Below, one piece after another: positions 8,168 to 61,172 of a stretch of DNA of 64,000 nt. Positions within the stretch are counted from its first letter, which is position 1, and every line of letters begins with the position of its first letter. The stretch is from Phoronis australis. Taxonomy: Eukaryota > Animalia > Phoronida. Both the position numbers and the translations under genes were made by a program. Where the stretch lies: the NCBI GenBank assembly GCA_002633005.1, contig NMRA01000421.1:138171-202170 (forward strand). Direction: 5' to 3'. The notes below the pieces were generated by a model. It was not told where the DNA came from. It did not search any database and was given only the letters and a program-made list of their open reading frames with translations.

Positions 8168-11100
8168 GTGAGTACACTACCTAGACTCCTAAATTTCACC
8201 AATGCCGTTCACCACGCCAGTGGCTCGATTCCAATTTAGTGTTGACATGGTTACCCAGCCAGTTGACATAGTTACTCAGCCAGTTGACATGGTTACCCAG
8301 CCAGTGGCTCGATTCCACTTAGGTGCTGAGATGGTTACCCAGCTTGTTGATATGGTTACCCAGCCAGTTGACATGGTTACCCAGCCAGTTGGCATGGTTA
8401 CCCAGCCAGTTGACATGGTTGCCCAGGCAGTTGACATCGTTACCCAGACAGTTGACATGGTTACCCAGCCAGTTGACATGGTTACCCAGCCAGTTGACAT
8501 GGTTACCCAGACAGTTGACATGGCTACCCAGCCAGTTGGCATGGTTACCCAGCCAGTTGACATGGTTACCCAGCCAGTGGCTTGATTCCACTTTTGAGTT
8601 GACATGGTTATTACAGCCAGTACAAGGTATCCATTTTCTGACCAATAACTAACTTTTAAGAGTTGCAGAACTGACGTCAACATGTCCTTTCTCACATCAG
8701 AGGTAGTTTCTGTGTTTGGTGCGAACTAACAATTCGATATTACTCGAGACTAGTGTGTTGTCACGTCGGGTCACTTTTTGTACTGAACGTAGCCCAAACA
8801 AACGAATTGGCAGTTGTTTCCAGGTCCAGAAATAACTTTGCATCTCATTAATAGTGGCGAAATGAGCCCAACATTATGCGTTTCTGGTTAACCAACATGG
8901 AATTTGACAAAAATCGATAGTAACAATTTCCATATAGATGATCATTTTGGGAGATCCCTGCAATTTCAAAATGTCTGCCTCTAGCAAAAGCAATGGTTTA
9001 TAGGTCTATATAACATCATCGATTTTGAATTAAACAGACCTTGTTTCATACCCGCAGATTTGAATTATAACCGTGCTTTTTGATTTTTGTTGTCACAAAC
9101 AACAGACGTATTCTGGCATGATAGTGGTTACAATGACGAAGCCTGTGTTTTCATCCTTAATTATGTTTATATTCTTCAGGTAATCTGGTCGAACAAGGCC
9201 AGTCTACAAAATAGGTTGTCAAGAGCAACATCGTAAAGCCACAAAACGCTGTTCAATTTAAATAATAGTGCAGGGCAAACTTGTTCACTTTTGGGTAACA
9301 AACATGAAACTCATCACAACTTTAGAGCTCACCAACAATTTTGTCTCGCTTTAATTTCGTTCGATTTTTGTGAGTTTCTGCTAATGATTCATATGTAGAG
9401 AGACGACACGACCATACTCGCAAGCCAGACAGCGCGTGACACGTGGTCCGCCATATTGATGATGAACACTACGTAAACAAAAGCACGGTGGCCTAAAGGA
9501 AGCTGGGGAATTTTCAGAATAAAATTTGAAATTTTAAATACTGTCGAGGTTCCAAAATATCGGTAACATAAAGCAATGTAAACAAATGACCCAAGCATTG
9601 CGTAAACGATCATATAAGCCATTGCAAAGACAAAATTCCTAATGCTTTGGCTGAAATTTTCACGGAGTGCTGCTAGGGCCTGGGACTGAGGTTTTGCCCG
9701 CTCAGTCGAAAAGACAATTACTGAAATGAATAAAGTTTAGAAACTGGTCATATACAACAACGTTATTAACCTTTTTTCAGTTGTTTATAAACCGACAAGA
9801 CGATCAGCTGTCAAGGGGGCCGCTTCTCCGGCGCGCTAATATATCACTGCATTCCCAAAGCTTTTAGTATGGGTGTAAAACGTCCTTGACCCGACGCCAC
9901 TTGATTTATTCTAACAAACAGATTTGAGGCATGCGTTCGTGTGAAACACTTGAAAACTAACTAAATAAAAATTAATAGAAACCCATGGAAATCGATGAGC
10001 AATATGCGTGCATGTAAAGTCGTGTCATTGTAAGCAACAATTGACCAATGGAAATGTACATGTTTGTGTACATTTACACGTGCGTATTCGGAATTGAGGG
10101 CATAGGCCAGTTTGAATAAAAGTTGGGAGCAAAATTTCGCAGAACGATCAAGTTATAGAAACTGATATCTTAACATTAAGTATTTCAATGAAAAAAGAAG
10201 ATTGCACAAATAAAAACACCCTGTGCTGGTTGGTAAGACACGCACATATACATCGGTTACCCGCGCGTGCTTGTGAACGCCACTGCTTAGGCGGCCGAAG
10301 CCGGAGGTCGAAGTATGCATTTGCACAGACCCAATTTCCAGAAAGGTGACTGGAATTTTCTACTTCAGGTTATACCAAGGAATAATAATTACACGAAAAT
10401 GCAGATGTTTTTTTCAAAAAATAAAACATGTAAGGGGCGCTGATTTGTCTCAAGGGAATTTACTTCAGAGATACGCTCGTAACTTTTCTTTAAGTATCTA
10501 GTTTTACTTGTTCTGGTACCTAATTCGTCTTAGCGTGATGAATTTGTATTTTGTGCAGTTTGAAACGACATGGTCTCACAGTTCAAACAGCTGTGTCATA
10601 GAGTCTGTTGTAAAACAACACGCCGGCTGCAATACATGTATATAAGCGGAACTAGAGTTTTAAAAAGGCGTTTGTATCATTAATTTTTACCTGTATTATT
10701 TTTTACACCAGTCAATGTACCCTTTTCATTCGACCATGATGTGCGGAATCGCAGATTTTTTCTGTCAATAACAAGCACTCTTCCATCTGATTGGCCATAC
10801 AGAACGAGAAGGACAACAAAAAATGTTCATATAGAAACAATACATTGAGATTCTGTAACCATTTCAAGCAATAATGTTGATTTATTTCAAAATATATTTA
10901 TTTCAAAATATCACCATAACGCAGTAAAATCACACCGTGACACTAAAAGGGAAATGTCAAGCTGGTACGAAGTTACTGTACCGTATTGGTACATGCACTC
11001 CACTTTAGCAAAAGTCAGATTTCAACCAACTCTAACTTAATCCCTCAATTCAGTTGGATCCGACATTTACTGGCACACAATTATGTTACTAGTACATTTA

Positions 11101-14100: not shown

Positions 14101-17100
14101 CCAAGTAACAAACTTCATGACAAAGCAAAATACTTGGAGAAATTTCTTTTCGCCAAGTGACAATTTTCTCAACGTGTGTTCTCGTTATGGTCAAATCACT
14201 TATACGTCACTACTCCGAAAGTCTATCACTTCAAAGGTTCATAACTCCGGGGGTTGACTGCTCCGAAGGTTGATTATTCCGAAAGTTCACAACTGTGAAG
14301 AGCTCCTAACGAGGTGGAGCTGACATGAATAAAGTATTGTTTTTGTGTCCGTTTAGGGAAGACTTGATCGAATACAAGGTAGTCTACCGGCCATGTAATT
14401 TCGCCGGCCCTGTCGTGCGCATGGTTCCAGTACTGTGGGTGAGATTGAGGCGCAACAGGTGAACTTTTCTGTCGCGGAGTGAAATGAGATGATCGGGACA
14501 TGAATTTGGTGAATGTATTGCGTATTCTTTTAAAAATGCAAATAGGTACTCATTTTCCGTATTCAACGTATAAAACATGCTTTGCAACCCAATTTCACAT
14601 GGCAGCGCAGTAAACACAAACCAAATGTATTAATACCTTGGAGTTATTCTCGGTATGCACATGTGTACATGTACACCACTGCGTCTGATACAATTCCAAA
14701 TAAGTCAGAGGTTTCTTGGCACAATTAGTCAACAAACCCGTTACCGCCATTTGTCACATGCCAACCCGTGGCCCTGGGTGCCCTGAATAGTCTACTCTCT
14801 TATATATTCCCTGCTCTAGTCTTAGAGCTTTTGGTGTATAGGAGCAAACTGACAGCTTTTAATAGGGTATTTTTCATACTGGTGCTGTCTAGAGTAATAA
14901 GAGCCGCGAGAAGGCGACTTCTGCTTGATCGAGACACTGATTTGATGGGCAGAAATTGAGTGCGAGCATGCTCGGCTGTTCATTTTTTGTCTGACATTTC
15001 CCCAGCGTTCTTGTTGACTCAATGACCTTCCATTTTAAAGTTACACGTTTCTTAGTCAGTTTCCTTCTCATTATTCCGAATTTGTTGACGTCATTCAAAA
15101 TCGACGGTTGTCGTTTCTGTCACGGTCGTCACCTTCTTTATCCTCATCGCTGTATTAACGTTTGCTCTTTCAATGTCATCGCCAAATTGGCGGGATCTGT
15201 TTCTGCTAGTTTTTATATAACTTACGATATCACATTGTCAGTGTATCAAGTAATCCTGCCCCGTGCACTGAAGCACGTGTGTGCGTGTGTGTTATTTCAG
15301 GCAGCTTCCTGTTGCCATGCATACACGTGTTACCCCCATCCTTCTTGTTTCTCTTCCATGTCTCTGTAACGTGTTCTGCTTCATGATAAATGGAATGAGG
15401 CCTGCATTTTTCTGAAAACACCATCGGTGAGAGAGAGTGGATTTAATTCAGTCACATGTGCCTCAACTGTGATTATACGTTGATATAAAATTAATTATAT
15501 GCTGTTGTGTTGTCAGAGAGATGTGCCTTGTACGGAGACAAGATGTCTGGGGTCCGTCATGTTTCCGGTGGTGTCAACAACCCAAAACTACGAGACCATT
15601 TTGAGAGAGGCCGAAGATTTTTTGAGGCAATACTATACATCTATCAACAAGTGAGTGTGAAATCTAGTCAAATGATACCGTCAGGTCAAACCCTCTATAC
15701 ATTATGATTTGAGATGTTATGTAACTGAATGCGTCAAATATTGCGTTTTGGGCATTGAAATTTGACTGTCTGCTTCATTCAAACAGCACGTTCTACCTTA
15801 CATAACGAGCCTATTATGTATGGTTAGCTGATAAACGATTTATTTGTTCCTCTGTGAGTAAATGTAAATCTCAATAAGTAAACACGGTTCCTTGCACTTT
15901 GCCTGTCTAGACACATGATAACGAATGATTAATGAAATGAATTTACAGAGCAGCATGTGGCTAACCAACGTTATTACAGGGTCTTTACCAAATAAGCATT
16001 TGTAGTCCTTCAGAACACTTTCCTAATGATTTTAGCCGAGGTAACTTTCGCAATTTCACCGTCCGCCAAACGTGATAAACAGACAGAAAATCAGATTCTT
16101 CTTGTCTTGTGAATTGTTAGCCGAAAGAAACCAGGTGGCAACCTTAAAGGAGAATGCCATCCGATTTAATTAGTCTTTTTTACCGTCTTAATCGGTCTAT
16201 ATCCACCATCACCTCGCATACGGTCGATCTTACCTCGCTGAGAGGTGTCGCTTTAATTAACCGGTGAGGAAAGTGAAAACCGACGCAGTGACGTTAGAGT
16301 GAGTGCCGCTATAGTGTGGTGTATCGATCCCGCTTGTGCGAACTATGATGAAGCTGCAAGGAAAGCGAATTTATATTTTTTTCGATTTCTTCGAGAGCTT
16401 ACAATGCTTCGGAAGTGGTTTGCGGTTGTGAAGAATGAAAAGTACGCCGTAATACCAAGTATGAGGCCGTGAAACTTCTCCTTGTCTGTGGTCGGCATTT
16501 CGTCTACAGTGATTTCACTGACGATCGAATACCGGCTTACCAAACAGCTCATGCCAGGGCAGAAAAAGAGACTGAGGCTGAAGTCAGACGTTGTGCATAG
16601 TGTGTTTGCGTTTGGTAGGCAGGAGACAAAGCAGCGCGGATCGGTTGTTGCTCAGTTTTGATTATGGAGAACTGTAGTTGGTCATGAAAACAGGAACAAT
16701 TGCAATTAATTCAAGGAATGAGAACATAACGTTTTATATTAGCTGTTTGATGACTGGCTCGTTCGTAAGGCTTCTGTTTGGTCCTCTGGGTGAAGAATGT
16801 TTTCACCACTTCTTTTTCTCAGCCCTAAAAAAATTCATAAGGACACCTCTGGTTAGGTGCGGTGCAAAATCAGGATGGCCCGTGAGGCACATCTGCGCTT
16901 CACAAAAAAAATTTCGTGGCAGCAAACTCAAGCGTCAGTTGTTTCCATTATCGTGCAGCTGGCACACTGACACCATATGACAAGTCATTTAGTCAGTGTA
17001 TTTCGGTTCGAACTGATAGCTTGTGAAACCTAACGATCGACTTGTGAAGTCTTCGTCGGGTGAGCACTTGTCTAAGTCGGGATTGCGAGTTGCCACGTTT

Positions 17101-20100
17101 GACGTTTATTCTTGTGCGTTCTGTTTCAAAATGAATCATTCTCACCCTAACCAATTCTTATATAAAACTGAAACAAGTCTGCCACTGGCCGGGAAAACAA
17201 TCGTTTTTGTGTGTTTAGAACTGAAAAAATCGCAGGTCTAAAATTACAACACTATGTTCTCCTGTCTGTATTTCATGGACGAATAATTTGAATTTATCAC
17301 CGAACGACAGACCCCAAACTCCCGCGACCGACCTTGGTAATTTGGCCCACCGAACTTTGTAGGCTACGATACGTTCCAATACCTATAAATCCCCACAGCG
17401 AAATAAAACAACACATTGGTTCAATAACTCGATGTATTTGCAAGGGTGTTACATCGAATTTTGTTGATTTATTGGTGTAAAACGATGATATCAACCGATA
17501 AGCTGACACCAGTAAACTTGTTGTGAACTGCTGAGCTGACTGCGTTCGAACCTTTGACGTCACTGGTTAATTTCGACACCTTCGCTGCCATTAGATGTCA
17601 GGTAAAAGAACTGTACTTGCTGTTATCGAGTGGAACTACTTAATCTAAATTGATACAAAATAGGTTGTTTTTGGGTGGTATTCTTCTTTAAACCTTTTTT
17701 CGGTAATCGCATGCTTAAGGCAACGTAAAGTCGTGATTCGTAACTTTGTCGTCAGGTTTCCATTCTTGTATTCTCGTTTGTGTTTCCTCTTCCGGTCGAT
17801 TTTAGCTAGGTCAACTTCTTTTAAGGAAAAATACAATACTCACAAGGCACTGTGCAGGGACAAAAGGTGCAAATACGACTTAATTCACGAAACGCTACTC
17901 ATTCAAATATTTTATATAAGATTTTTTAAATTGACCCAGTTGTAAGGGTAGCTATGATCGTTGTCACAGTTATTCTTTATCTATGTTGTTTTTTAGGTTA
18001 GACTCTGATGCTCATCGCAAAAGATGGGAACAGGTCCGGACTGACATTGAAGAGAAGGGCTGGTATGAGCACACGTTCCGTGAGTTGGCTTTTGGGGCAA
18101 AGACTGCATGGCGCAATGCTCCAAGATGCATTGGACGAATTCAATGGTCCAACATAACGGTATGGTACCTACAAACCAGTGGCAGATCTACATTTTCAGT
18201 AAGAGGGGTTTCGAATTCGCGCTAATCTGAGGTGCGTAGCGCCGAGCAGGGGGAAAGTCCCTCCCGTGTAAGATTTTTTTGGTTTTTGTAGCTGATTTTG
18301 TTTTCCTGGCGACGTTTTTTTTTTAATTTTATTTTTGATCCTGTCCCGGGGAGGTTTAATCCTCCTGAGCCCCCCCTCCCCCACGAAGATCCGCCTCTGC
18401 AAACTGAAGTTCCCTTGTGGATTTTTATTTTGGGTAGTTGTTTTTGTAGTTATTGTTGTCCTTGTATTTAATGTTGTTGTTGATGATGATAATGTTTTCA
18501 GACTTTCGTTTTCCTTCCAGACATTCGACGGTCGCCATGTGGCCACGGCAAGAGGAATGTTTGACATGTTGTGCTCCCAACTGAAATTTGCTACAAACGG
18601 TGGGATTCTACGGTAACCGTTATCACAAATTTCAGGTTGACCAATGTCTGCCCAGCTTTGCAGCAAAAATTGACTTGGTTGGTTGCTCGAGCTATTCACT
18701 ATAAACTATTCTCATTCATTGAGCATATCTTAAAGTGGCTCACCGCGAAGCGTCCGAGGCGGAAAACTGACAACTTTAAACAGCCAAAAAAGATATAATT
18801 TACAGTGGAGTGTCTGGCTGCAGGAATAAAGTCTGAGCCTTTCAGTTAGCTTTGCTCCACTGGTAATGAATTGCAGGTCAAATAGTCAAACGACGCCAGT
18901 TGACGTATCATACCCTTCGTCAGATCCTAGTCAATGAAGTATGATTGGTATTCTTGTTATCTGAATTCGCAAGAACTTGTTTTATTGAATATACGTAAGA
19001 AATCAAAAAGAGTACGTTCCTGAAGGAAGAATGCGCATGCAATTGAACCTCTTTCGATAATCTTTGGGACCATTAGACTGCAAAATATTGAAAAAATATT
19101 GATGAAATCTGTTCGGAGGCAGCTTTCGGTAATCAGTTCTAAACCTACCTGGTCCAACAAATTTTTCACCCTAACCCCTCCTTTATAGCACAAAAATACC
19201 AAATGCAATCACGTATGTAAAGGCGGCGCAACCTCGGTCGCGCAACATCGAAGATGGCATTCATAATATTCCTTTCATGATAGGATTCTACATGTATTTC
19301 CGTAACATGAATAGCGAAACCATCAGTCAACCCTCAACTTAAAAATTGCTATCTTAGTTGCCGGCTCTTTCTGCAACAACTCAATGTCACATGAGGGTAG
19401 CATAAATGCTAAACTTAAAGCTCTTCGGTTAAGAATTCGGCATCTATAGCGAAATGTCCCTTTGCTCATAAAGTTGGAACCATGTTTTATTCATCCATTT
19501 ACCGATATAATCAGCCAGTTGTACAAGCACGAAAGTCAGCAATAACTGCTGTCGTGGTACTGTTTCCGTTACTTTAACCACAAACGCGGGACTTTATTCG
19601 GTTTAAACATTGACGGCCGAGTTCCGGATACGTGTACCCAAACAGTAAACACTGAATACTAGTATCAAACGACAAAGTATATGCTTGCTCATTGGTAACT
19701 TTTTAGCAACTATTGAATTGTTTAAAAGTCCAGATCCGATGTTGACTTGGAAACGCGTTCAATTTTGCTCACTTAAGTCGTTTTCCCTTTAGAAGCGAAA
19801 CTTCGCTTTTACTGAAGTATCGATAAGTGGAAAATGTTAACGGTAGTTAATCTGCAAACGAAACTTCGCTTAAAATACTAGGACTTAGTGGGAACACTAA
19901 AAGCGAAGCCTCGTCGAAGTTATCGGTAGAGGTCGCGGCAACGATGTGCGATTGTAGCGTAGCCGACGTGATCTCTCTAAGCGGACGTAAATAAATAAAA
20001 GAAAGCATATCTGATCATAGATTATAGACTATAGTCTATGATCTGATGAAGAATGACACTGATCATTTTCATTAACACTCGTAAATGGCAAGCAAATCCA

Positions 20101-23100
20101 CTACTCAATGTTCGTCAGGGAGTACGAATTAACTGCGTCGTCGTCTTTTGTCATAGCGGTAACTCCGATATCGCTATTAAGCATCGACGGCCAAGGACCA
20201 TGTGGTAGATAAGTTTCACACTTAACATGTTTTTATCCCCTATAAGTAAAGTTATTTATTATTATCATTATCATTATCATCATCATTATTATTATTATTG
20301 TTATTATTATTATAAGCAGGAAAGGTAAGCGACGCTTCGGCGAAACTTCGCTAAACCAAAGATTCCCTAATGGGAAGCGCTTTCAGTGTTTTGGAGAGAG
20401 CGTTTCCTGCAGCGGGGCGCTTTTGCATGGTCTGACGTTACATCTTTCTCAAGAGAGAGCTTCGCCGCTACACGTTAAACGTGAACGCGACCGTGTGACG
20501 TCGGCATTTTTGCTTACGACGGCGCAGAGTTGGTCAACATTTTTGCGTTCAGTCTTCAGGCTACACGTTGGACAGTAAGAATGTGAAGACAGCTGATCTC
20601 GCGTAACACGCTGATTCCCTGCGTGTCCGCTAGGGGGTATAGGACACGCAGGTATCATTCAGCAGCACACGTTTATGACTGGTTGATACAACATCGGCAG
20701 TCATTGGATAATTTTACAACAAAGAAAGAAAATGGCTGACTGTAAACGATTTTTAGCCTTGTCAACATCTTTGCGAACCAAGTTTTCTCTCTACTGCAAA
20801 TATCTCGTTTCTGCAGTAATGTTTTTAAACATTACTGCAGAAAAAAATAGCCGCGTGGCCAATTTAACTTGTTTGTGATTCATACTGTGTAAACACTGGT
20901 CAGGAACGTAAACAAAGTCAGCGACAGTAGAAAAATGCTCACCGAAAAGGCACAATCACAACTTTTCGATTCACATTGTTTTAACATATTCCAATTAAGC
21001 ACCGATTTGTCTGTACAACGGACCACAAATTATGTTCACATACACTTCCTCCATCAATCATGCCAGTTGTTTACGTAAAACGCTACCTCATGACAATTGG
21101 ACCAGCTAATCAGAAACGCCAGTGTAAAAATTTTTTCCTAGGAAAATTAAATGATACCTGCGTGTCCTCTACCCCCTAGTAGACACGCGGGGAACCAGAG
21201 ATCTCGCGTAAGCATGGGCGGCGCAGCACTGAAATAAGTGGGGAGCTATAGTCCCGGAGCCTCTATGGTGTGCGCCGCCCATAGGTCGCAGCACTGAAAT
21301 AAGTGGGGGCTATAGCTCCCCCCTCCAGCCACCATTGCCGATTTCTCGCAAAAGATCGTTAAATTTATGCAACAGTTTAATGCTTTTTTCACCCAAGAGA
21401 CGGTGTAGCTTAGTGCATGTGTGTTACTCGGTTTAAAGATTGTTATATGACCTTTGTTCTGAGTTCTTTGTCGCGTTGGTGGTTTTTCTCAGAAACCCCA
21501 CAGTAATCGGGTAGTAATGAGTGACTCGTGCCAAACAACAATTCTCAATTTCGGTGATATTTCATGAAAGCAAATGAGAAGAATGCTTTGAATAGCAAAC
21601 AGGAATAACTGCGAGTTTATGAATTGAGGAAAAAACTTTTTTCTGCATTTTTGCTCAAAGTCACTTTTAATGTCAGAAACAACGACAGCTGGGAGTTTCT
21701 GTACCTGGGTTATTGATTGTTCTTACAGGGGAAAGAATATTGCGTAACTTTGACGCCCCCCCCCCCACAGCCGCCACCTATTTTTCGCACCCGCACCCCT
21801 CATATGGTTCGTGTTTGCTTTTAACGTGTAGCCAAAGCTCACTATTACAACACACCGCATAGGCGAATGTGAAGCTGTGGTCTCACGTGTCAAATGTGAC
21901 GCCGAAACTCTCTATTATGCGCTGACGGATTGAGGTGACGAGAGATACCGTTTGAATTTAATGGATTTAGCGTCATACATATCACCGTGGGCGTAACTTG
22001 TTGGGGGTGTCGGAAAAGGTTTGGTAAAGAGGTTTATTCAAATGAGAATTTTACATTTAAGAGTAATGAAAAATGAGGTTTCAAGAAGGGTCTCTTTACT
22101 CGTTTGTGATAAGTTTGTCCTTTGCTTTAATTGCGGGTATTCTTAGCGTTATTAAGTTTCGTAACATTTTAACTAACACTGAAAAATTCTCTATTCGTTA
22201 AAAATGAGGTATAACTGTTTCATTTACGGAGATGGCCGTCAAACTAGTTCACATTATATTACTGTGGGAGTATTTCAGTCTAGTACTGCAATACTCACGA
22301 GTCCTTCTTACTTACTAGGTTCCGAATCCTCATTTCAACGTACTGAATGTTCACGAAATGCAAATGTCTGTAAGAAAGTAGGAGGTAATGCTATTTTATT
22401 CAAAAAAGTTTAAATCGATGAATGACCGGATTACACTTAATTTTAGTGGGAGCCCATTTGATCTCGTCACAGTGCATACGGTGCGGGTTTCTTGTGTTGT
22501 GATCTGGCGCAACTCATGAATCAGGTCCGACTTTCCGAGAAACGACGAGTTAACGGGAACTATTGACGTTGCTAACAACTCTATCCAAGCCTACAAACTA
22601 TCTACGCGTCAAAAAATTTTACTTGCCTTAATCTCTTTTTTGTCTCGCTTCTTGGCAGGAGACTCATAATTTGCGTCTGAACCATGCGACTTTGTACACG
22701 TCCTGGCCTACAGGAGTACATCGCATGTACCAGTTGCTCTTGTGGACAAACTGGAAGGCTTCGCACCTGTATCTTTTTATTGCATCCTTGAATGTCTCAA
22801 ACAGAGTGAAATTTTGTGTTTGTAGATCGTCGATCACAATCTTTGCTCCTCGAACTGACAGTAAACGTGTCTTCCGGATTTGGAACAATGGGTTGCTATG
22901 TTACGCTGGGTACGAGCAACCTGACGGCAGTGTTATTGGAGATCCTGCAAATGTGGAAATCACGAATGTAAGTGTAAGAAAATAACGAAATTAATGTAGA
23001 GGAGGGTGAGAGTTAGGGAGAAAGGGCGAAGAGGGAGAGGGGGTGGGTAAAGAATGACAAGGTTGGGGAAACGGGATACACATCTGTTCAGATGGGCAAG

Positions 23101-26100
23101 AGTCGTACCAACAGGGAGGGAGACAAGGTGATCCATAGCCTTAGTACAAAGCTGTATACTAAATATATTTTGACGATAGCCTTCATACATCTAGCTGGCT
23201 GGCTAGGTGATTCAGTGAGATGAAGGTCGTTGTAAAGCAACTATGGTACGTTTTATGGTCATTTCCGTAAACAAACAATAATTGTCTTTTACAGATTGCC
23301 CTAAAACTTGGATGGAAAGGCAAAGGTGGCATGTTTGACTTGCTGCCGCTAATTCTTCAAGCTGGTGGGGAAGATCCCGAAGTCTTTGAAATTCCCCCAG
23401 AGTGTGCCTTAGAAGTTCATTTAAAACATCCACGGTAAGGTGGCCAACCTCTTACGTCGTTGGCATGCCTCCTTGTTTCAGAGACTGTAAAGTCTGACTT
23501 CCAGTATTTCCTACCTAGTTGTTGATCATCCCGGCAAAAGTAATGGAATTCGAGAACAATGCAATGGAAATAGTTTTATTAGAATTTCTTACTAGTTAAG
23601 TTATTACTACTGCTAATGCATGAATCGCAAAGCTATTGGAGGCCAGCATTCTTTAGATCACTTTGTAGATTCAAATGGTTTGAGGAGCTGGGCTGGCGTT
23701 GGACGGCCGTGCCCGCTGTGTGCGGGATGATGATGGATTGTGGCGGTGTACAGTACACGGCGACAGCATTTAGCGGTTGGTTCATGAACACCGAAGTGGC
23801 GGCAAGAGACCTGTGCGACAGTGGGCGCTACAATCTTTTGGGGGTAAGTGTGCATTATCCACAAAGTCTCGACTCGGTCTTTGTCACCACATGAGGGCGC
23901 TGCGAAAGAACTTGTCGCGTATTTTTCTTGGAACCATAACGGAGGTACGTTTCATACAACAAAGTCGCTTAAATCAACATGCCTGTGGCTGGAGGTGATG
24001 TGACGGGTGCACAAACGCTATCTCCCTCATCGGTAGTGTAGGCCTTACTTTGCCTGTGCGAGTTTGTGTCCATTGGAACCCCTAATAGCTATGATGAGGA
24101 CAAGTAGGAGATGAGAGAAGTGGTGAAATCGGCACCGACCGTCACAATTAATGAACTGGTTACGTCTGTGGGAAGTCAATATTTGTGACGTTATATGAAT
24201 GGAAAATTGGGAATCGGAGAAGGCAAATTTTGTGAACGTGTTGGTGACCGTGAAATCAAAATTTTGTTGCGGCTTGTGAAGGCAACGTTGACGATTATCG
24301 AAGAGACGAGTGAGAACCACTGCACCCGGGATGACTAGTGTTGATGTCTAAGATTGGAATGTTTGTCCGAGCTGACTAGTGACTTATAATAAGGGATATT
24401 TAACCGTGAATTTAAACATGTAATTTTATTTTGACCGCAGGTGACGAATGTGAAATAACAACTTCGTGAATAAAGTGAGTTCCAAAAATTGCAGGAGTTC
24501 ACCAAATAAACGAGTGGGTCGCCATCGAAGTATCTAAAATTATGACAAGTGTCCAACAGTGTCCTTAGAGCTTCATACACTGTATACTTTTAAGGCGTGC
24601 CTTTCGTCGTCAATAGCTCTAGTACATACACAGCAAAACGCTGATCTCTAGCTAACCTTTAGGGAAGTGTACCGTATGCCAGCTCGGATTTTCAGTTAAT
24701 GATTTGAACTCCTAAAACGTACACGAACTGAAACTAGAATACACGTACGTCTATTTTCAAACAGTTAATAACAATCTAATTTACTAAGAGGTGTTACTTC
24801 ACCCAGCCTACGTAATAAATTGTTTCAATTCGCAGATAAATAACTCTTCGTTTCCAACCTTATGACAGACCCATGTACTGCCAAGTTCAGTTCTGCAGAA
24901 CAACTGTTTAGCTGTTTCCTTCAACAACGTCATACTAGAAAAGGTTATAATATAACTTGTCTAACGCAGGATCAAAAATTTATTTAAATAGCCAATGATA
25001 TAGATATGTCGACAGCCACGCGCCTAAAACTGCCGAGTTACTGTATGTTGAAGCTTGGCAACATGTTATAATGAAATGTATACCACAATATTATCCTTGA
25101 AAGGCATTTACAACCGTGTAATAGCCCATAAAGTTATCTCACTAGTGAGATAACATTTTGGCGGGAAACTGACGCCGGATTTGAACCCGGGCCTCAAGAG
25201 TTTAGAGTCGCCCACTTTACCACTACACCACTCAGCGACTGACGTCATCGAACTTGAATGAGCACGCGCAACAATCCCATGTTCAGCAAAGGGCATCGCT
25301 ATGAAAAATAAGACGCATAATTTCGATAAAAACCATATTTTAATTCAGTGAATTTTTCTCTCGTGTTCTCTCACTTGTAAATCACCGATCTCCAATTTGA
25401 ATGCGGGTATCGTGGCGTCGGGATCCTTTGACTTGAGCATTATAGTCAGTTACTAGTGGTAATCTACTTTAGCAGACGATATTTTCCCGGTCGAAGCTTA
25501 GCGTGATAAAATGTGTAGTAAGCTTTAATAGTTGCTAAAACTTAATTTATAGATTCACTTTATTTCTATTTTGTTTTATTTTTCAATTGGTTTTGAGTAA
25601 AAGCATTGTTTGACAAAAATAGCTCGGCTTTTCTTAAAAGGTCACAACCTTCGACTCCGGGCCTCTGACATAGAAAGTAGTTACAAAGCCGAGGCGAGTC
25701 GAGAAAGGTACATTGTAGATCGATTCATTGCAATGTTTCTCGTTTAGTATGTGGTATAAATAGATTATTACATGTTCTCAGTCGTTATCCCCCTTATCTA
25801 GAGCCCTCGTGGACTTTGTAGAATTATCACCTTCGGGGCTAACGCGCCTCGAGCGATTATTCTTCAAAATCCACTCGAGCTCTAGATAACGGGGGATAAC
25901 GACTTCGCCATGTAATAATCTCTATTTATGTTGCGTAATCGTTGTGCTTGAGCAGCAGCTTGGAACTCGTAGGGAAAACATTTTATAAGCAGTATGAAGA
26001 AATATAATGCCAATGCCTGTACCTAGAGGGGGGCTCAGGGAGCTCGAACGAGCCCCTTCATTTGCTGAATTGGGCAAAAAGGTCCGCCTTAGAGAAACAA

Positions 26101-29100
26101 AAACTCAGAAAAAGTGGAAAACGAGATAAAACTCCATTAAAAAGCCAGGAACTGCCAAAATGCGGCGAATGCACAATTCATGGCTCTTAACGTACCCCGT
26201 GATTCTTAGTAAAAGGTCCACATTCTCAAAAATTCGACACCCCCCCTCCATTTAGGCTGGGTGCGCACATGATGGTAATGCCATAAGTTAAGATCACAAA
26301 GATGCGAAAACCAATAGATGGTGTTGTTTCTGTACTGAAAGGATTTCAAACAATTTTTTTAATCTGCAATTGTTGATATCTATTTACCTTGGATTAATTT
26401 TGCTGTTGTATGTCTGGTCAACATTTGTGACTTCAGGAGGTCTTTTCAAGGCATAAATAACTCTAACATGAATTTTCGGCTCTAAAACATGTTGTGTCCC
26501 TTTCAGGAATCTACCACAAAGGATATCAACGTTAGGTGGTTTCAGAGCAAAACAGTACACAATATTCTTTCGGTAAATAGGTTTTTAGCCAAAATTTAGA
26601 TTGGTGATACCAATTTTGGGTTTTTGTAATTAAGTGAATCTGCCACAGTTTTGGCAGGCATACAGTTGTGCGTATTTTCTTAAGGCGTGTGTTAATGTGT
26701 GTATGAAGGGATCTCGTCTGTGTATTTTTCTCGCACACCCCCATGTTCCTGTCGTTATAGGTGGTTGCCGAGAAGATGGGACTAGACACGAGCAACAATG
26801 TGAGCTTGTGGAAGGATCAAGCCTTGCTAGAGATGAACATTGCCGTCCTCCATAGTTACCAGGTAATGTTGCGTTTTCAACTAATCGCCTACGTGGCGGT
26901 TAAATTTTTCTATGGATACTAGCTACAAGATTCGTTTGTGCTGTATCGCCCAACGTGTTAAATCAGTCATTAATAAACCAATATGCAACAATCAATAAAT
27001 TGGGATTTTATAAAGTGAATGTTTATTGGAGAAAATACGAGAACAACAGATGATGCACTTCATTTCACAGTTGAACATAGTATCCCAGGTCTCTTAGTAA
27101 CGGTTGACTTCGAAAATGAATTTGATTCTGTGTCGTGGAAATTCATATACAGCATTATGTGTTTTTTCAATTTTGGAAAAAAAATCGTAAATTGTGTTCG
27201 CTTTCTGAACAAGGGTGCAAAACGTTGTATTATTCAAGATGGCTTCACGTCACAGTTTCTCGAAATTGGTCGCGGCTGACGTCAAGGATACCTTCTCTCT
27301 CCCTATCTGTTCATTATTTGTGCCAAGATTATGACCACAATGTTTCGCCAAAATAGTAATGTAAAACATACCAATGAGGTTCATTGCAAATAAAAAAATT
27401 TTACAGTATGCCGATGATAAAGTTATCTGTCTGGATGGCTCCAACAAATTTGTTGGACCAGTTTTACAAGTTCTCAGATTTGAAACCCAGCCTAGGAAAA
27501 ACTCATCGTATATAGATCAGCTCAATGAAACTTAGTGCATTACGTTTGTGTCCAGAATTTGATCTCTCTTGGCGTAGACATTCATTTACCGCCCTTGGTA
27601 TCAACTTCCTTAATTTAAGAGAAATGTTAACAAATAACTACATGTATAATGACAAAATTCGTGAAATCAGATTGACGTTAACAAGGTGGTCCAAAAGGTC
27701 GTTAACACCTTTTGGGAAAACTAACTGTCATTAAATACTTTGCCCTGTCAAAATTGGACCATCTCTTGACAACATTGCCCTCTCCGTTAGAAGACTTTTA
27801 AGTCTTCTAACATTAAAATTGAATTGCTGGATAAATTATTTTTACAGTTTCATATGTGGCAATAAACCTGACAAAATTACGAGTACTACCTTGATTCAAG
27901 TTGGTTCAACTGAAGTCAGTAATCAAATCCCTTAAAATTTCGTGGTTCACAAGACTGATACTTAGTGATGAGAGAGCACAGTAGAAAATTTTAATTTCTA
28001 CAAATGTCTTACTTTCATGTAACGCGTTTTATTTTCGGAAGGCCTGTTATCGTTCTCTCGCTTCTTCGGGTAGTATCAGTTTTGGGAAGAAGTTTTTCGT
28101 ATTGTTAGAGAATTGGTTGGCATGTTCATGGTTAGCAAGGCAAAGACTCCGTACCAGGCAATTTGGTTTAATCCCAGAATCTCAATTATTGACAAGAAAT
28201 ACATTTTTATGAAGGTTGGTAAGCCACGGGCACTGTATATATTTACGATTTGTTAAATTCTCATGGTAATTTGATGTCTTACGAAGACTTTTGTAATTAT
28301 TATGGATTTTCTTTTAGTTACCATTCACTGTAGTTTTTGGGTTTGCGATTTGTTTTTCGTAACTTACTTAAACATGCGAATTTGTCCAAATCATTCTTCC
28401 TCACTGCCAAGAGTTTATTAGCACTTTACTTAACACATGTAAAATCGAAAACGGTTTGTATGATAAATTTGTTAGTTGCTAATATACAAATTAACTAAAT
28501 TTCAAAGTAAGTGGGAAGATTGTCTTAACAGAGAACTTTCAGGTGAATGGTGGAGAACTGGCTATAGAGAAAAGACACGAATCTTAAATGGTTCCAAGTA
28601 AGACTTATTCACAGAATTCTTGGCACAAATTGTTTTTTTATTTAAAATAGGTATAGTTAACTAACCATTTTGTACATTCTGTGGAAAAGATCTCGAGAAT
28701 CTGCCATGAATTTTGAAAGTGCGAAGTTATTCACAATTTTTGGAAGTTAGTGAACAACTGGTTTACTGCTAAAACAGGGATTGTTATTAGCTTTACTTTG
28801 AAAGATATTATATTTGGGAAAGCGGGGGTCAAACATGTGGTTTTTCTCTTTATTTGCTAAGTGAAACGTCCTAAACATGAAGATAAGTTTAATTCCAGAC
28901 CTCTCTGCTTGCAATGGCTGAAAACGAAATTTTTGAATATCATAACAAAGTAAGTTACTGTAAGAGCTTGAATTATGAGCATTTTAGAAAAAGATGGATC
29001 CCCGTAGAGGGATTTTTTGTCTAACAGTGTAATAATTGAATGTGTGACTATAATCGATTCCGGTATGAATGGGGTGTGTATAGTGTTAAAATACGCAAAA

Positions 29101-32100
29101 ATGTGTATTTACACCGCGGTTGTAGGAGTAATGTTTATAACATGCATCACACTGTTCTTTTGTAAGCTGTAGTTGTGAATATAATAAAAGTATTTAAAAA
29201 TTCGATTGATTTGAAACTGTGTGTGGCAAGGGTCTTGCATTAATAAATTGAAACTTACGACAAAGCAATCATTTGGATAACTACAGAAATCGATGTTTTC
29301 AGTTTAAGTTGGAAGTTTAGTTGCTGCTGTATTTTAACGTAGGGATGTGCTTGATTCGTAGCATTAGTAACATTGTGTTGTCTGTTCAACAGTCTGCAGG
29401 GGTGTCGATGGTAGACCATCACTCGGCGTCAGAAAGCTTTATGCGCCATCTTGAAAATGAAAATCGTTTGCGAGGTGGTTGCCCTGGTGACTGGATATGG
29501 ATAGTTCCACCGATGAGCGGCAATTTGATGTCTGTCTTCCATCAAGAGATGCTTCTCTATAACCTGAAACCGTCCTATGAATACCAGGTAATAGCAGTTA
29601 TAGAGAAAAAGTGTAACTGTTACAGTAGAGTCGTGTGTGCTTTCATGACTTAGCTGAGAGGGCGTTTTCCACCCCGACAGGGGAGGGCACCGACGGGAGT
29701 AAGGAGGCACAAACCACCGGGCGACGGCACAAAGTGTACTGATCGAAGGTCGGTAAAAAATAGGGACAATCCACGGGAGAACAACCCGACTTCGGTTGTG
29801 ACCGGAGGTGGACGACACAAAAAATGGTGACCATGACGGGAAAGCACGAAATGCGAAATTGATGGCGGCTGTGGAGCACCATCGTCGAAATTCCTAACTA
29901 TTCCGCAGTTTGCGGCAATGCATGTCACGTGACAATACATCATCTGTTTCTTCTGGTAGTTTTTGCTGCATTTCAAAGAAAATATTTAATTTCAGTTCTC
30001 TATATCGTCATCCTCCCAGTTGCACTCACCCGGTGTACAGACATAACCATCATCACCGTGGCACCTTCTCACCATCGTCACCATCGTCATCATTGTCTCC
30101 GTCACAGGTTCATCAGTATATTTAAATTGTTGTTTTTTATTCTTTTTGTTGGTCTTGTTGTTACTGTTGTTGTTGTCCTTGTATTGTATTTATTTTGTGT
30201 TATAACAGCGCAAGGCTTGGGAAACGCATGAATGGAAAAACACGCAGCTGAAACCACATGTCAGTAAACGGCAAGAGAAGATTAAATTCAAAGATCTGGC
30301 CAGGTAACTCTGTCTTTTGGAAGCAAAAATGGCACCTTCACAGTGTCACAAAACTGAGATTTTGGATTCGTAGTTAAAGTAGCACCAGTCTCACATCTGA
30401 CAAATCTTAAGTTTGTCACTCCGTTTGGGCCAGCGTTTTTTTCAAGACTGGCAGTGGATGTTCATTCCTGTTGTCTTTGAAATTCCCACTTCCTCGCAGC
30501 AGCTGCCCACTGTTTTACCCAAGGACGAGAAATTGACCAACGCTGACATCATCGAGATCTTATGTCATCTGCATAAGAATTAGCCACCAATTGACTGTAT
30601 ATTATCTTTTGGATCACGTCCGTACTGTTGTAGATACATATGTTCCATTGTGATTTCCATAAGACAGAGATTGAATCGTGAGCTGCAAGACATAAGTTTG
30701 CGTTTGCAGCGAAACATCCTCACTTACATGGAACGGAAACAGTAATTTTAGCACTACAGCTTGACCGACCAATCACTTCGGTGGCCGCCATTTTGCTTGG
30801 ATAGACAAGTGAGCTGCCGAGCATAATCGCGAAACACTCTCCTTTCACTCGCAAGATCTTGCTTTTCTCACAAGTTAAGTCTACGTGTGTCACCTGGCTT
30901 CTTAAACTGCCCGTAGTCTGGCGTGTGTTCAGTAACGCCAGGACCTACGCTAGGACCTAGCTGAAATCTAACATGTTACGTGTTCTCATTAAAATACACG
31001 GCAACATCTCACGCAATCTCACAAAGTCTTGCTTTTTAGCGAGGACCTAGTGTTACTGAACGAGAGGCTGGTCTCAGGCGGAGGAAGGACGTATTTGAAA
31101 AACTTGGCTGAATGACCTACCGCGATGGTACATCCTGTATACCTGCACCTATTCTTAAATATAGTGTAAAATGTAATAAGCGCTAGGTAAGCTTAATGGT
31201 TTCTCTCTTGGTGTTGTAAGACGTCATGAGAGCAATGCTTATCCTTAGACATTGCCACGAAGAAACTGCTTTGAAATGATTGGCTATTACAGGGCAGTAA
31301 AGTTTAGCGCAAAGCTTATGACGAAAGCAATGGCCAATCGAGTCAAGTGTACTGTTGTTTATGGGAGTGAAACTGGTCGATCCAAGCACTACGCGCAAGT
31401 CTTGTCCAACATGTTCAACCGCGCTTTTAGTTCTCAGGTTAGCCTATTCTTTGTCTCAAACGCGTCTTTAGGTCTCAGGTTAGTCCATTCTTTTTCTCAG
31501 ACGCGCCATTACTTCTCAGGCTTACATATTCTTTGTCTCAAATGCGCCTTTAGTTCTTAGGTTAGCCATTTCTTTGCGCGTGATTTTTACGTCTTTAAAA
31601 CGCCTGTTGTTCTCTTTCGAAGTTAACCGATTTCCTTACGTCGGCGTTAAGACGTTTTTTCCTGGATTTTGGTTTCCTCAGATTTCAGCATTTGCCTTTT
31701 ACACGAAAAGTTACACGGTCGATTTGTTTGTTATATGTTAAAGTCCCTTGTGTTTCCACGTCTTAGAATCGGCTTGTAGACATAATAATGTTTCCATTCC
31801 ACTTAAAATTTGACTTTTAACAGAAGAAACAACGTTGAAATAGCCCAAAGAACTGAGTTTAAAATGGCTAAAAATCAGCTATAAATGGACAGACGTTTCT
31901 ATGTGTGAACATTTCTGTATAGGTGCTGTGTATGGATGAATGCAGTTTAATCGAGCTTTATGACGTACCTCTGGTGCTCTTTGTGACCAGCACTTTTGGT
32001 AATGGAGATCCGCCAGAAAACGGAGAGGTAAGCATATCAAACGGGGGCGAGATATGTAACGTCAGTCCCTCGAGAGACACTTGCGGGGTGAATCCTTGGC

Positions 32101-35100
32101 TTTTATTTATACAACGGAAAGATTGAGTAGTCTTGGATTTTGCCATTTAATTTTCGCCCATATTTCAGCCTACCAATCACTTTCAGTGGCTGTCGTTTTG
32201 CTATGATGTGCCAACATTGTCGCGAGTTCACTCGCAAAACACTAGCGATACCTTACGTCACATTAGTGCGATCTTGCGTCATATTGCCAAGCATACAAGA
32301 CGCTCGCCTTGCGGAACGCACCACCAGTCAACACCAATAAAACACAAAAAGCCACAGGCGGATTAAGGGCAGCTCGACCATACCACCTAAGGACATGACC
32401 GTGTCGCTGTAGGGAATTACGCTGACAATTTTCCTTTGAAAGATATGGTCACCTCTTTAAGACAACCTTAATACAACAGTGGACAGAACTTTTCTAATTC
32501 ACGTTTCTGGGAAAAACATTGCTTGAAATTAAGACAGCGTGCTACGCCTGGTGAATCGTCTACAACGACCTATGGTAAACATAGTCTTTATACAACGACC
32601 CATGGTAAACATAGTCTTTATACAACGACTTATGGTAAACATAGTCTTTAACCCAAGTTGTTAGAACAACCCTTTGTAAATTTTTCATAATACTTGTTAT
32701 TTGTCTGGGAGTTTGAAAATCGTTAACCTTGGTAATGGACGAATTGGCATTTATTCACGTGCTTTTATTCAAAGGTCCGTGTTACTGACACAGCAACAGA
32801 AATTTCTTTTTCCCTGTTAAGTTTAACAACACGCTCCGTGAAAATAGGGGTCAGATAATTTCATTTAAGAGCTGTGCTTGGCCGACTGTGGGAAAGATTT
32901 TTACTGTAATGTGCATTCATTCCTGTATTGATTGTTACCGGTAGCATTTCATTTCAGGCATTTTACAAAGAACTGAAGATCGCATCAAAAGGATCTTCCA
33001 GGTAATATTTCTTTTCACAGGTATGAAGTTTAAGAACGCTACTTACTTGAAAATTTCTCTCGGCTTCGCAGAGTCCCGTATTTCCTTTCACCGTTACCCG
33101 AGTAGCGTTCAATAGCTGTCTTGCGGTGAGAAAAAACAGGCTTAAAGCACGTGTTCTTATTGAAAATACACGGCGATATCTCGCGGATTCTCTCGACATC
33201 TTGCTTTTCTAGCGAGGCACTAGCGGTTACTACACTGACTTCACTTGGTATGCTGAGTCAACTGACTAAGACATCTAATTGGTTTGTAAGCCGGAAGTCG
33301 TCATCGAGAACCAATCGGTTTTCGTGCCCGGTTGACCGGTGCAGCCCCTTAGTCAAGCAATTGCAGCCCCTGTGAATATAAACCAAGGTTTTCTCCAGAC
33401 AAACTCGGACGTATACTTGGATATATGTTTAGGGCTTAACTGTCATATTCAAATATTCTCACAGGGCATATTTGGAAGTGACGAATTTACGCTGGGGTAT
33501 ATTCCTGTAGGCCCAAAGTAGCAAACTGAAAACAAAGGAGTCAATACCCAACATTGTATTTGTACGATTTTCCGGCAGCTTATTGTTGAAGATTTACTTA
33601 ACTTAATGTTTTGTTGTTCATTTCCAATGAAACTAGTGGAAGTTTTAGGATCGAACCATGTATATTTTCCCAAATGTACGCCCTGGGAGTTTCTGCAGTT
33701 GGGTATATCAAAAGTTGACTCTTGAGCTTACAAAAAAGTTCGATTAGCGGTAGTGGTATAACTAGCAGTAATACTAGATGAAGTGCTGCTACTGCTATTG
33801 CTACTATTAATACTACTTCTAGTCCTACTTAACCAGTACTCCAACTTGTACTTCTGCTAGTACTGTCGGAGGTCCTAAATTGGTGAGAGATCTTATTTCC
33901 TCTTCTGCGCTGTCCCGCGACATCTAGCGTTGAAGTTTCCAGCGTTCGTCTGCTTACGAACGTCAAACGAATACCCGGACATGTTGATACTCACAATATG
34001 ATAATAAAAAGTGAGTGAGTGGCGTCTTTTTTCTAATGTATCTTAAAAACAGCATATTTCACTAATTCACTTTTTGTGCATTTTCAGAATATATATTCGA
34101 AAACATACATCGTTGAGGTTTGCTCAAACGCGCACTCCAGGGGTAGCTTGAACAATGTATCAAAATGTCTTAGGGTCGATCAAGCTTCGTAAAGCCAAAG
34201 CAATAAAATACAGAGAGATAATTGATGCTGGGTTTTTAGCGTTTTACGTAAACATCCTCATTGGAAACTTCTGTGCTCATCGGAGTTGGATGCTAAACAC
34301 ATGACAATTTATTTCAATTGAAACTGAATTAATAAACAACGCAATGCGTTTTTGTGTCGTCTAGAGTAACTGTAAGCACTGTAGTTGATTTGTGCGGCCT
34401 TTCTGTCTATACGAAACGGTCACGACTTTAGGAGCTCATTCAAAATGGCCGGCGATACGAGCGACCGTTTCAAAACTCTGCTTACGGAGACAAACACGGG
34501 TTAAGACCGGAAGAAACACGTATATTTGTGAAGGCTGATACATGTTCATGACATTGCATGAGCAGTTCCTAACGGACATTGGGTAGTAGTGCAATCAGCT
34601 GCTTTTTATCCTTATATTAACGACATTAGGTCACCGGTGTCTACTACTAGTACAACTGCCAGCACTACTGCCAGTACTATTTCTAGTACTACTTGTTTCA
34701 ATAGTGCTGGCAGTACAGTTGTACTAGCAGTATTACTAGTAGTTGTTCTAACAGTAGTACTAGCAGTAGTATTAGTTGGGTAGTACTAAAGCAACTGGTA
34801 CTAATTCCCTTATTCCGCACTACATCTCTTCTCGGCCGTGAGATAAGATTATATTGATTGTACAATGGTGCCGCTGTGCGCACGACGGGCTTCGCCGTCT
34901 TTTGTCCCTCTGAACCGTCGAGAAGGGGTGAAATGTGACATCCCCCATCCAAGGATATTTCTATTCCACTTCCTTGAATCGGCATTGCTGCTCACGGTAC
35001 ATCAGTAATACTTTCCGGAAATGACTTAAATATGATGTAAAATATTCAGACGACAGATGCTATCATGTCAATCTCCCTAGGAGCGAAAGCGAGGCTGCTG

Positions 35101-38100
35101 ACCTGACTGCAATATGTGGAGGTGTACCGCTATTTCGTACCTCACAGCGTGGGAGAGCGATCAGTGCGAAAAGTGGGATTGTAGCAGCAGCAATGGTAGC
35201 ACTACCAGAAGTAGTAGTAGCAGTACAGGGATGTGCTTTAGAAACAGTGCCTCTCGAGCACATGTGGTCTTCTGCTGAGTAGTAGTGGACGTGTGATTCT
35301 CGCGAAAATGGCGTCGCACTCTGTTGTTCAGGAACGACTCCGCAAAATTTCCTGACATTTTTCCTTTTCAGAAGTTTTGAATATACTATTTTCGCATTGA
35401 GTACTTCAAATGGCTGATTTACAATGTACAATCCATCTCGGGCGTATTTTAGGCTTTCAAAAAGATATAGGGTTCTTTGAGCACGAAGACAATTTTTTAC
35501 AATATGGCTTCCCTTGGTAGAAGTTTTCGTTGCATTTATGAACATAGGAGGACATAATAAACTTTATTTGTTTAACGGAACAGTATACACTGAAAAGTAT
35601 CCAGAGGATCTTCTGTGTCATCAATTTATACGTAAGGTCTTATTCATAAGAAATATTCGCTGAAGAGGACGGTTTTGATTTTGGCCTGTAATAATCTAAT
35701 TTAGTGTTAATAAATGGTATTTCTCTTCTTAAATATATTTATGCGATAATATGGACTCGTCTTACTTATACCTCACTTTTTCTTTCATTCGGACTTGTCC
35801 ACTAATGCTTTGCGTAGATTCGCATACTCTCATTAGCACACGACGTACTAGGACATTTCATAACCAGCCTCAATATGGGTTCGTTTCTGTCATGTGTCTC
35901 GAGTTTGGTTAGCTCCTGGCTCCTATTGGCAGATGATTATCACTTGTCTTAAGGTTAACCTTTGTTCTCAGTAATCATATGTTTCCTGCCATTCCTTCGC
36001 TTTAGCAGCACTTACGTTTGAGTATAATCTCTCTTCATTTTTTCCACTCACTACCACCCCTTTTTTCCGGTGGTTCCTCTTACCTGAGTGCTGCGCTTTT
36101 TAATGCCCATATTTCAAGAGATTATTATTTTATGTTTACTTATTATACTACACTCGTATTTTTTACCCTGATCAGTCATAATAAATGACCTTTATTTCGC
36201 CTATATACGGTCCTTTTTATCTCTAGAAAAGTAGCTTCCGACGCACTTATCATTTTGGGACATACTTCGAACATAAAGTATTTTTCAAAAATCTCATTAA
36301 GCTTCAGATGCTCATTTACAAGTTACCAATCAATATGGATGCCGTTAAAAGCAGAACTGCACTGTTGACAGGAGAGTCTGTCTCGTTCACCGCCGGTAGG
36401 CTGTTGAAAACATCTAAATGCTAATCCTAGGTAGTCTACGGTTTACTTCCGCTTGCGAAAACGGGCGAACTTTTACGACTAGTGTCACTGATACGAAGTT
36501 GATTTACTAGCCTGGTGTAAGTTCAGAGGCAGTTAATTGGTTGATTGGAAGGTTTAACTTAGTGATATTGATATGAGATGACATTTCCAAAGGAAAATGG
36601 TATCTTAATGTTTAACATTGCTGACGTGACATACTCTAAAAAGATCATTGGATCTTAAATTTACAGACCAATTCAATCCATCACGAACCATACCCGATCG
36701 AAGTTGAGACGCGCATTGACGTTAGACCAATCACCAGATGTGTTGGAAAATATCCAGTAAGTATAGAATTCGGCAAAAGAATGCCTTCTAGCGTATGAAT
36801 TTTACGTTCTTCTCGTAACTGGTGCATTTGAACGTAACATGCTGAGCAGAAGTTGGAACATTTGACAGCGAAGCTCTGTAAAGTTTATAAAAATGTGAAC
36901 GGTGGTCGTGTTTAATTGTTTTAGCATAAAGTTATTTAGATGCGCCTATAGAATGCATCACAAATGATATTTTTTTCATCCATTTGCACATGATAGAATG
37001 AGAAACACCAGAGAACTTAAGATTAAATTCACGGGGTGCAGTATTAGTCATGTGAAAACTAGCAAATGCAGTCTTGCGGAATACTGCCGAAAAATACTGA
37101 AAGAACCACTAAGCGGTAACCCAGCACTCAGATCCATCAAACAGTTGACGCCAGTCATCCTCATAATAATAGACACGTGTATCCTACAACAATTCATTAC
37201 CTCAAGTCTGAACTACCCAAAAATGGGTAATTGCTGCCAAATCCCATTGAGATTCTTCTTTACTTGATAGATGAGACAAACGCAAGAAAACTAATGCTGC
37301 AGCTAGCCAGTATAACAGTAAGCGTAACTGACCAAATATTGCTGCCTGTCAGGTTTCCACTCACTATAATCACCCGTGTCGAATTTAGCAACGATTTTCA
37401 AACCATTTGGCATTTAGAAAAATTGCCACTAGGGACGCACAACAAGTCGGAACTGTGTGAAAATGGGCAGGTGTTGTTTTCTTCGAAGGGCATGGTGGAT
37501 GCAGATGCAAACGCTAAAAAACTAAAGTTGTCACCAAGGGGCATAGCAGTAGTTAGCGAAAAGCATCTTCTCTTTCGTAGAAACATGACTTCCAAAGTTC
37601 ATGAAGATCCTTCAAGCAGTGTTGTAGTTATGCGGGCTGACGCTGGACGTTATAAGCACAGACCAATATGACTGCAATATGCACCCAAATATGGTGTCTG
37701 GGTTCGTGAACAGCGAAAAGCATAATTACTTAGTTTTGTGAATCTATGCGTCTTTGGTCTACATTGCATGGTAATTTCCAGTTAATGTTCCGTCTACTTA
37801 AAGGAGAATGCCACCCAAAAAACAACCTATTTTGTATCAGTTTAGAACGAGTAGTTCTACTCGATAATGCCATGTTCGGTTGCGTTACCTGACACGTACC
37901 TGACGGCAGACGGAGGTGTTGAAATTATCAATGACGTAGTTGGTTTCACACGCAGTCTCAGTAGTTCACAACACGGTTTAATGGTGTCAGCTTATCGCAT
38001 GAATTCATCGTTTAACACCAATAAATCATCAAACTTCGATGTAAAACCCTTAAAAATACACCGAGTTCTTATAAAAACGTGCTGTTTTATTTCGCTGTTA

Positions 38101-60968: not shown

Positions 60969-61172
60969 NNNNNNNNNNNNNNNNNNNNNNNNNNNNNNNN
61001 NNNNNNNNNNNNNNNNNNNNNNNNNNNNNNNNNNNNNNNNNNNNNNNNNNNNNNNNNNNNNNNNNNNNNNNNNNNNNNNNNNNNNNNNNNNNNNNNNNNN
61101 NNNNNNNNNNNNNNNNNNNNNNNNNNNNNNNNNNNNNNNNNNNNNNNNNNNNNNNNNNNNNNNNNNNNNNNN
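60969..61172. other. Assembly gap (N run) followed by GA-rich low-complexity sequence
   Basis: 204 Ns. Confidence 1.

Follow-up and report, generated by a model that had tools for sequence, protein, structure and literature searches.

The window analysed here, i.e., the whole 64-kb stretch of contig NMRA01000421.1 (positions 138,171 to 202,170), contains one copy of a nitric oxide synthase (NOS) gene, in which three of the four residues that face the α-carboxylate of L-arginine are replaced. Modelled by TBLASTN with homologs and by inspection of splice sites, the gene runs from 7973 to 59075 on the forward strand, with 24 exons and 3345 nt (1114 codons plus the stop). There are no internal stops and all 23 introns keep AG/GT with compatible phases, so the initial annotation was right to describe a gene free of stops and frameshifts. 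The first exon opens at a splice acceptor and its first in-frame Met is at 8018, indicating that a further exon may lie upstream. A 21-bp tandem array of 16 copies (8241–8578) stands directly after this exon.

The 1114-amino acid chain carries, in this order, a PF02898 oxygenase domain, a calmodulin (CaM) site, and the flavin mononucleotide (FMN), flavin adenine dinucleotide (FAD), and nicotinamide adenine dinucleotide phosphate (NADPH) domains, as an animal NOS does. Of 14 stretches scanned with Pfam, 11 gave matches to the oxygenase, flavodoxin, FAD, or NAD domains, several of the reductase matches being weak. The Zn, heme, tetrahydrobiopterin (BH4), CaM, FMN, FAD, NADPH, and C-terminal motifs are all present in the gene model. 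All exons named here are on the forward strand. The Zn-binding CxxxxC is encoded by the exon at 15517–15650 (Cys at 15529 and 15544), and the heme-ligating Cys (18127–18129) with its adjoining Trp by the exon at 17997–18159, the latter seen by both Pfam and motif scan. The two pocket exons (22826–22967 and 23669–23843) are separated by a further oxygenase exon at 23295–23434, also matched by Pfam. The BH4-contacting Trp pair (from 29492) and the FHQE motif (29537) are located in the exon at 29393–29587. Two exons (30209–30303 and 31293–31437) encode the CaM-binding helix and the start of the FMN domain; four copies of a 41-bp unit at 31415–31576 duplicate the end of this CaM/FMN exon including its splice donor, which gives extra potential donors downstream. 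A 44-nt linker exon of the FMN domain (32958–33001) was placed by its splice sites and phase rather than by homology. Eleven reductase exons (40174–59075) then carry the FMN, FAD, and NADPH motifs and a C-terminal tail with RxRxxS at 59031, as found by the gene model, Pfam, and the motif scan. With the heme-thiolate Cys, CxxxxC, Arg596, the Trp pair, and FHQE in place, the gene belongs to the animal NOS family by all sequence criteria that we applied.

Residues are numbered as in rat nNOS, based on ungapped alignments to the full-length nNOS chain 8t1j, in which 22827–22967 corresponds to nNOS residues 457–502, and positions 2–56 of 23673–23843 correspond to residues 553–607. Read codon by codon, the first pocket exon has Gly (GGG, 22890–22892) at position 478 and Cys (TGT, 22899–22901) at position 481, and the second has Thr (ACG, 23703–23705) at 562, Gly (GGG, 23724–23726) at 569, and Phe (TTC, 23781–23783) at 588, together with a change of Ile-Gly to Val-Ala at 593–594. 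The three altered motifs described in the initial annotation are therefore where it had placed them, and the alignment agrees with its assignment of Gln478Gly, Tyr562Thr, and Tyr588Phe. The mammalian-type L-arginine pocket (Gln478, Tyr562, Tyr588, and Asp or Asn597) is thus not matched: the window NOS has Gly, Thr, Phe, and Asp, i.e., only Asp597 (23808) is kept on the α-carboxylate side. The guanidinium-binding Glu592 (23793) and Trp587, the distal Pro565, Val567, and Phe584, and Arg596 are all kept, and the motif scan and the homolog columns described below bear out the claim that the guanidinium, heme, Zn, and BH4 residues and the whole reductase are retained. The minimum number of base changes is at least two for Gln478Gly, at least three for Tyr562Thr, and one for Tyr588Phe. 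Further oxygenase changes at highly conserved columns are Asp471Val in the first pocket exon, Leu559Trp, Gly590Asn in the second pocket exon, Ser686Asn in the exon at 29393–29587, and an Asn-to-Ile change where the exon at 18521–18612 ends.

We take Tyr562 to contact the substrate carboxylate. According to PMC6120233, Gln478 lines the substrate site and Tyr588 bonds the α-COOH of the substrate, and mutation of Tyr588, also mentioned in the initial annotation, strongly alters both binding and oxidation, for which the paper cites Sato 2001 and Giroud 2010. PMC10343299 describes Asp597 as bonding the substrate carboxylate and as favoring carboxyl-extended cationic ligands or inhibitors about 1000-fold. 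A literature search, limited mainly to open-access text, found no description of a natural animal NOS without these carboxylate ligands. Four supplements of PMC7400543 gave no match for Lingula, Phoronis, or brachiopod, and the terms "residue" and "active site" are absent from the available portion of bioRxiv 10.64898/2026.09.15.751659.

How unusual the pocket is was evaluated in 248 of 253 fetched proteins of at least 400 amino acids (five lacked a scored column), a redundant set rich in vertebrates, molluscs, and insects. Glu592, Trp587, Phe584, Pro565, and Arg596, all five kept in the window NOS, are invariant (248/248), and the full Gln/Tyr/Tyr/Asp-or-Asn set is found in 201 homologs. Column 478 is Gln in 243 proteins, Thr in two, and Leu, His, and Lys in one each, with no Gly; column 562 is Tyr in 209, Phe in 27, His in eight, and other residues in four, with no Thr; column 588 is Tyr in 240 and Phe in eight. 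Ordinary NOS also show single losses: Tyr562 is replaced by Phe in Sepia and by His in several passerine eNOS (P0307, P0310, P0317, P0324, and P0342), the second starfish NOS (P0287 and P0289) has Thr478, and in NOS of the PDZ type Tyr588 is Phe in oyster and clam and Gln478 is Leu in Lingula. The oyster sequence with Phe588 is from Saccostrea; that of C. gigas, a species with one NOS according to PMC7686737, lies outside the comparison. Each pocket position is therefore, judging from these columns, individually dispensable in main-line animal NOS.

The second-shell changes fare differently from what was first claimed. Column 481 is Arg in only 141 of the 248 proteins, Ser in 60 (Drosophila among them), and other residues in 47, although never Cys, so that Arg481 is replaced in 107; column 569 is Asn in 129 and Gly in 30; Ile593Val is found in nine and Gly594Ala in 15. 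We therefore rejected Arg481Cys, Asn569Gly, and the Ile-Gly to Val-Ala change as evidence of remodelling, since these columns are commonly variable in invertebrate NOS. The initial annotation would have yielded if its substitutions were common in characterised Arg-using invertebrate NOS, and this applies in part: the changes in columns 481 and 569 are ordinary, single losses at 478, 562, and 588 exist in invertebrates, and Phe588 is uncommon but present in PDZ-type NOS, whereas Gly478, Thr562, and the triple combination are what is rare in this comparison. The window NOS is, on this evidence, a real variant of a known enzyme and less unique than first claimed.

Homologs were searched with a profile, which gave 744 matches from 7989 scored candidates, 120 of them listed. 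No close full-length ortholog was found among the 744 matches (best score 495, compared with 566 for the window model). A representative search with the pocket exon gave identities of at most 68%, and none of the best 150 of its 721 matches has Thr562; a single-exon homolog search, weak with its eight candidates, gave no match. The best full-length matches are molluscan NOS with 48–49.5% identity (P0164 from Saccostrea and P0165 from Potamilus). Compared with metazoan NOS in general (PF02898, Flavodoxin_1, FAD_binding_1, and NAD_binding_1), the window NOS has the same domain order, cofactor motifs, CaM helix, and Glu592/Trp587/Asp597, but differs by Gly478, Thr562, and Phe588, by the lack of a PDZ domain in the window, and by the lack of an autoinhibitory loop in the model. 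In a mixture-model tree, from which seven pocket columns were removed and for which 18 of 56 sequences were used, the window NOS groups among protostomes (98/97) and outside a clade of molluscs plus nemertean (96/91), while its order relative to Lingula, Owenia, and arthropods is not separated. From its sequence, the source of the window NOS is probably a protostome invertebrate.

The closest parallel is in the vent snail Gigantopelta aegis. Its NOS P0246 (XP_041348761.1) has His478, Ser562, and Phe588 and, like the window NOS, keeps Asp597, Glu592, and a full reductase; the sister paralog P0198 (XP_041349355.1) has Gln, Val, and Phe at the three positions. Both have an eroded carboxylate site, but the residues differ from those in the window NOS and there is a one-residue deletion just after Glu592. 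P0246 nests with canonical Gigantopelta NOS (100/99), and a shared origin with the window NOS was rejected (forced grouping, approximately unbiased test p = 0.0003), indicating that the triple loss arose at least twice. No published characterisation of these paralogs was found. The NOS of Lingula anatina (XP_013404056.1 and XP_013404057.1; P0395 and P0364) has also lost Gln478 (Leu478, with Phe562 and Ala594), but it keeps Tyr588, has a long isoform with a PDZ-like N-terminus, and is 46% identical to the window NOS. We did not accept it as the sister of the window NOS, since the pairing, with a FastTree support of 0.96 and an IQ-TREE bootstrap of 47, is gone under the mixture model. Tyr588 mutants of rat nNOS, reportedly those of Sato 2001 and Giroud 2010, have Tyr588Phe in common with the window NOS, but as an engineered single change on a Gln478/Tyr562 background.

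Conservation classes were then defined from a taxon-balanced set of 55 homologs (56 sequences with the window NOS). The window NOS differs at only 3 of 118 invariant columns and at 12 of 88 columns with 95–99% conservation, in contrast to 246 of 327 columns below 50%, which argues against decay; the gene is intact and, as this gradient indicates, under purifying selection. In a simulation of neutral substitution, in which indels were ignored, 23 of 500 copies were still free of stops at 0.02 substitutions per site and none of 500 at 0.05. Taken with the two or more and three or more base changes at codons 478 and 562, this indicates that selection was acting on the gene when the pocket changes were fixed. 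The window NOS is at the same time the most divergent of the 56 sequences at conserved columns (32 deviations in 288), with an end branch of 1.27 compared with a median of 0.47, and some pocket change is therefore to be expected. Because the gene is fast-evolving overall, the clustering of ligand changes is only marginal: the conservation-matched background probability of three or more of the four ligands changing is about 0.04 (logistic fit on the 55 homologs, post hoc). The proposal of neofunctionalisation rather than decay thus holds as regards decay, of which the gene shows no sign, whereas neofunctionalisation toward a new substrate is only possible.

A second peculiarity concerns the FMN-domain linker, which is 15 residues long in the model, the lowest value among 112 measured and near the 17 residues of a fish iNOS (P0291). 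The autoinhibitory loop therefore appears to be absent from the window NOS, unlike in nearly all the invertebrate NOS fetched. The 7.1-kb intron after the linker exon (33001–40174) holds nine phase-compatible candidate exons, none of which is insert-like by eye, and may include an exon missed in the model. Vertebrate NOS2 likewise has a short linker without the loop, but it is not orthologous to the window NOS and keeps Gln/Tyr/Tyr/Asp. Absence of the loop has been linked to calcium independence in human iNOS (PMC7400543). Eleven N-terminal queries gave no match to a PDZ domain within the window; as the first exon begins at an acceptor, upstream exons could fall outside it.

Combining these observations, we give an even chance to the interpretation that the window NOS is an intact, fast-evolving, iNOS-like enzyme with a relaxed carboxylate subsite, which would still oxidize L-arginine at lower affinity. 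Electrons would pass from NADPH through FAD and FMN to the heme as in other NOS. The guanidinium would be clamped over the heme by Glu592 and Trp587, and arginine held by its guanidinium and α-amine with the carboxyl end loose, so that NO and citrulline would be formed with weaker binding and a broader tolerance at the carboxyl end. The affinity for arginine may have shifted from about 1 μM to tens or hundreds of μM, in which case NO output would track the cellular arginine level, and the enzyme, if it lacks the loop, would be largely insensitive to calcium. PMC6120233 gives a scale for the affinity: guanidines without the whole α-amino-acid end bind rat nNOS 60- to 160-fold more weakly (Ks of 269–317 μM compared with 1.7 μM) and can still be oxidized to NO, although the amino-acid end stabilizes the heme-pterin interaction. 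If the whole amino-acid end is worth about 100-fold, an enzyme that has lost only the carboxylate contacts should still bind arginine at the levels reached in invertebrate cells (0.35 mM arginine in Trichoplax, PMC7400543), which favors a low-affinity arginine NOS.

Several observations weigh against a merely relaxed subsite. Gly478 and Thr562 are radical changes present in none of the 248 homologs, and the loss of 478, 562, and 588 together is found in one, the Gigantopelta paralog P0246. With its hydrogen-bond partners and Arg481 lost, the retained Asp597 could repel the carboxylate of arginine. Among 277 distinct pocket-exon segments, a non-aromatic residue at 562 accompanies Phe588 in four of nine segments compared with 10 of 268 others (Fisher p = 0.0005); the test is post hoc, the segments are not independent, and the four include two sister paralogs. 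This co-occurrence suggests a coupled state rather than independent drift. The unnamed NOS fragments P0119 and P0100 combine a non-aromatic 562 with Phe588, and P0119 also has Asn590 as in the window NOS.

These points lend themselves to a tentative alternative, i.e., a switch of substrate to a guanidine whose carboxylate is missing or masked (agmatine, an amide or peptide of arginine, or an invertebrate phosphagen-type guanidine). Asp597 would then pair with a cationic tail, as its electrostatics in PMC10343299 would allow, and Gly478 would open room. The switch is credible because Asp597 is kept, Arg481 is lost, Gly478 leaves a cavity, and the triple loss with Asp kept is repeated independently in Gigantopelta; the untouched guanidinium clamp beside three lost carboxylate-side residues, the multi-step codon changes fixed under selection, the 562/588 coupling, and the ability of mammalian NOS to oxidize non-amino-acid guanidines (PMC6120233) point the same way. 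However, the clustering reaches only p of about 0.04 against the gene's own background, single losses are present in ordinary NOS, the homolog searches found no orthologous clade sharing the pattern, and nothing within the 64-kb window, with its one NOS copy, points to a canonical paralog covering arginine. The wider proposition, that several marine invertebrate lineages independently turned a NOS copy into a non-arginine guanidine enzyme by losing Gln478, Tyr562, and Tyr588 and keeping Asp597 for a cationic tail, we regard as rather unlikely.

Substrate-free NOS is uncoupled, and weak substrate binding combined with a calcium-insensitive reductase could make the window NOS mainly a source of superoxide or hydrogen peroxide, e.g., in defence. 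The intact reductase motifs and the 15-residue linker without the loop fit such a largely uncoupled oxidase, which we nevertheless consider improbable, as the guanidinium, BH4, and dimer residues, which a pure oxidase would not need, are all kept, and of the 69 invariant columns up to and including the oxygenase domain only 3 differ. Still more doubtful is a redundant duplicate under relaxed selection or a very recent pseudogene, in which the pocket changes would have no adaptive meaning. The long branch would suit it, and Daphnia provides a precedent in a fast-evolving NOS duplicate under purifying but relaxed selection (PMC2724039), but the amount of neutral drift that leaves the frame free of stops is far too small for six base changes in three chosen codons, and the 23 intact introns and the strong conservation gradient speak against it; function may, however, have been lost recently, after the pocket changes were fixed. 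Assembly or consensus errors are scarcely credible, since single-base errors cannot explain changes of at least two and three bases at 478 and 562, the two, three, and one base changes are spread over three codons in two exons that lie 800 bp from each other, the 3345 nt contain no indel or stop, and the nearest N is at a distance of 25 kb.

L-arginine counts as the universal substrate of animal NOS, and research on NO in invertebrates depends on inhibitors that are arginine analogues, e.g., L-NAME. A NOS that selection maintains in nature without the carboxylate ligands would be either a low-affinity, arginine-sensing source of NO, as we favor, or the first NOS in animals to use a different substrate, and in both cases its response to the standard inhibitors may be abnormal. 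If the substrate has indeed switched, the window NOS and its Gigantopelta counterpart would be the first cases of a natural animal NOS acting on a substrate other than L-arginine. The carboxylate subsite varies far more among invertebrates than mammalian structures imply, with repeated independent erosion in the window NOS, Gigantopelta, Lingula, and the second starfish NOS, which together make a small panel of natural variants.

Elsewhere in the window, the assembly has a single N at 49371 and a 204-base N gap at 60969–61172. The NOS introns contain a fragment resembling a long interspersed nuclear element reverse transcriptase (27019–27276) and a remnant resembling a DIRS-type recombinase (55998–56429, forward strand), both judged by eye from their translations.

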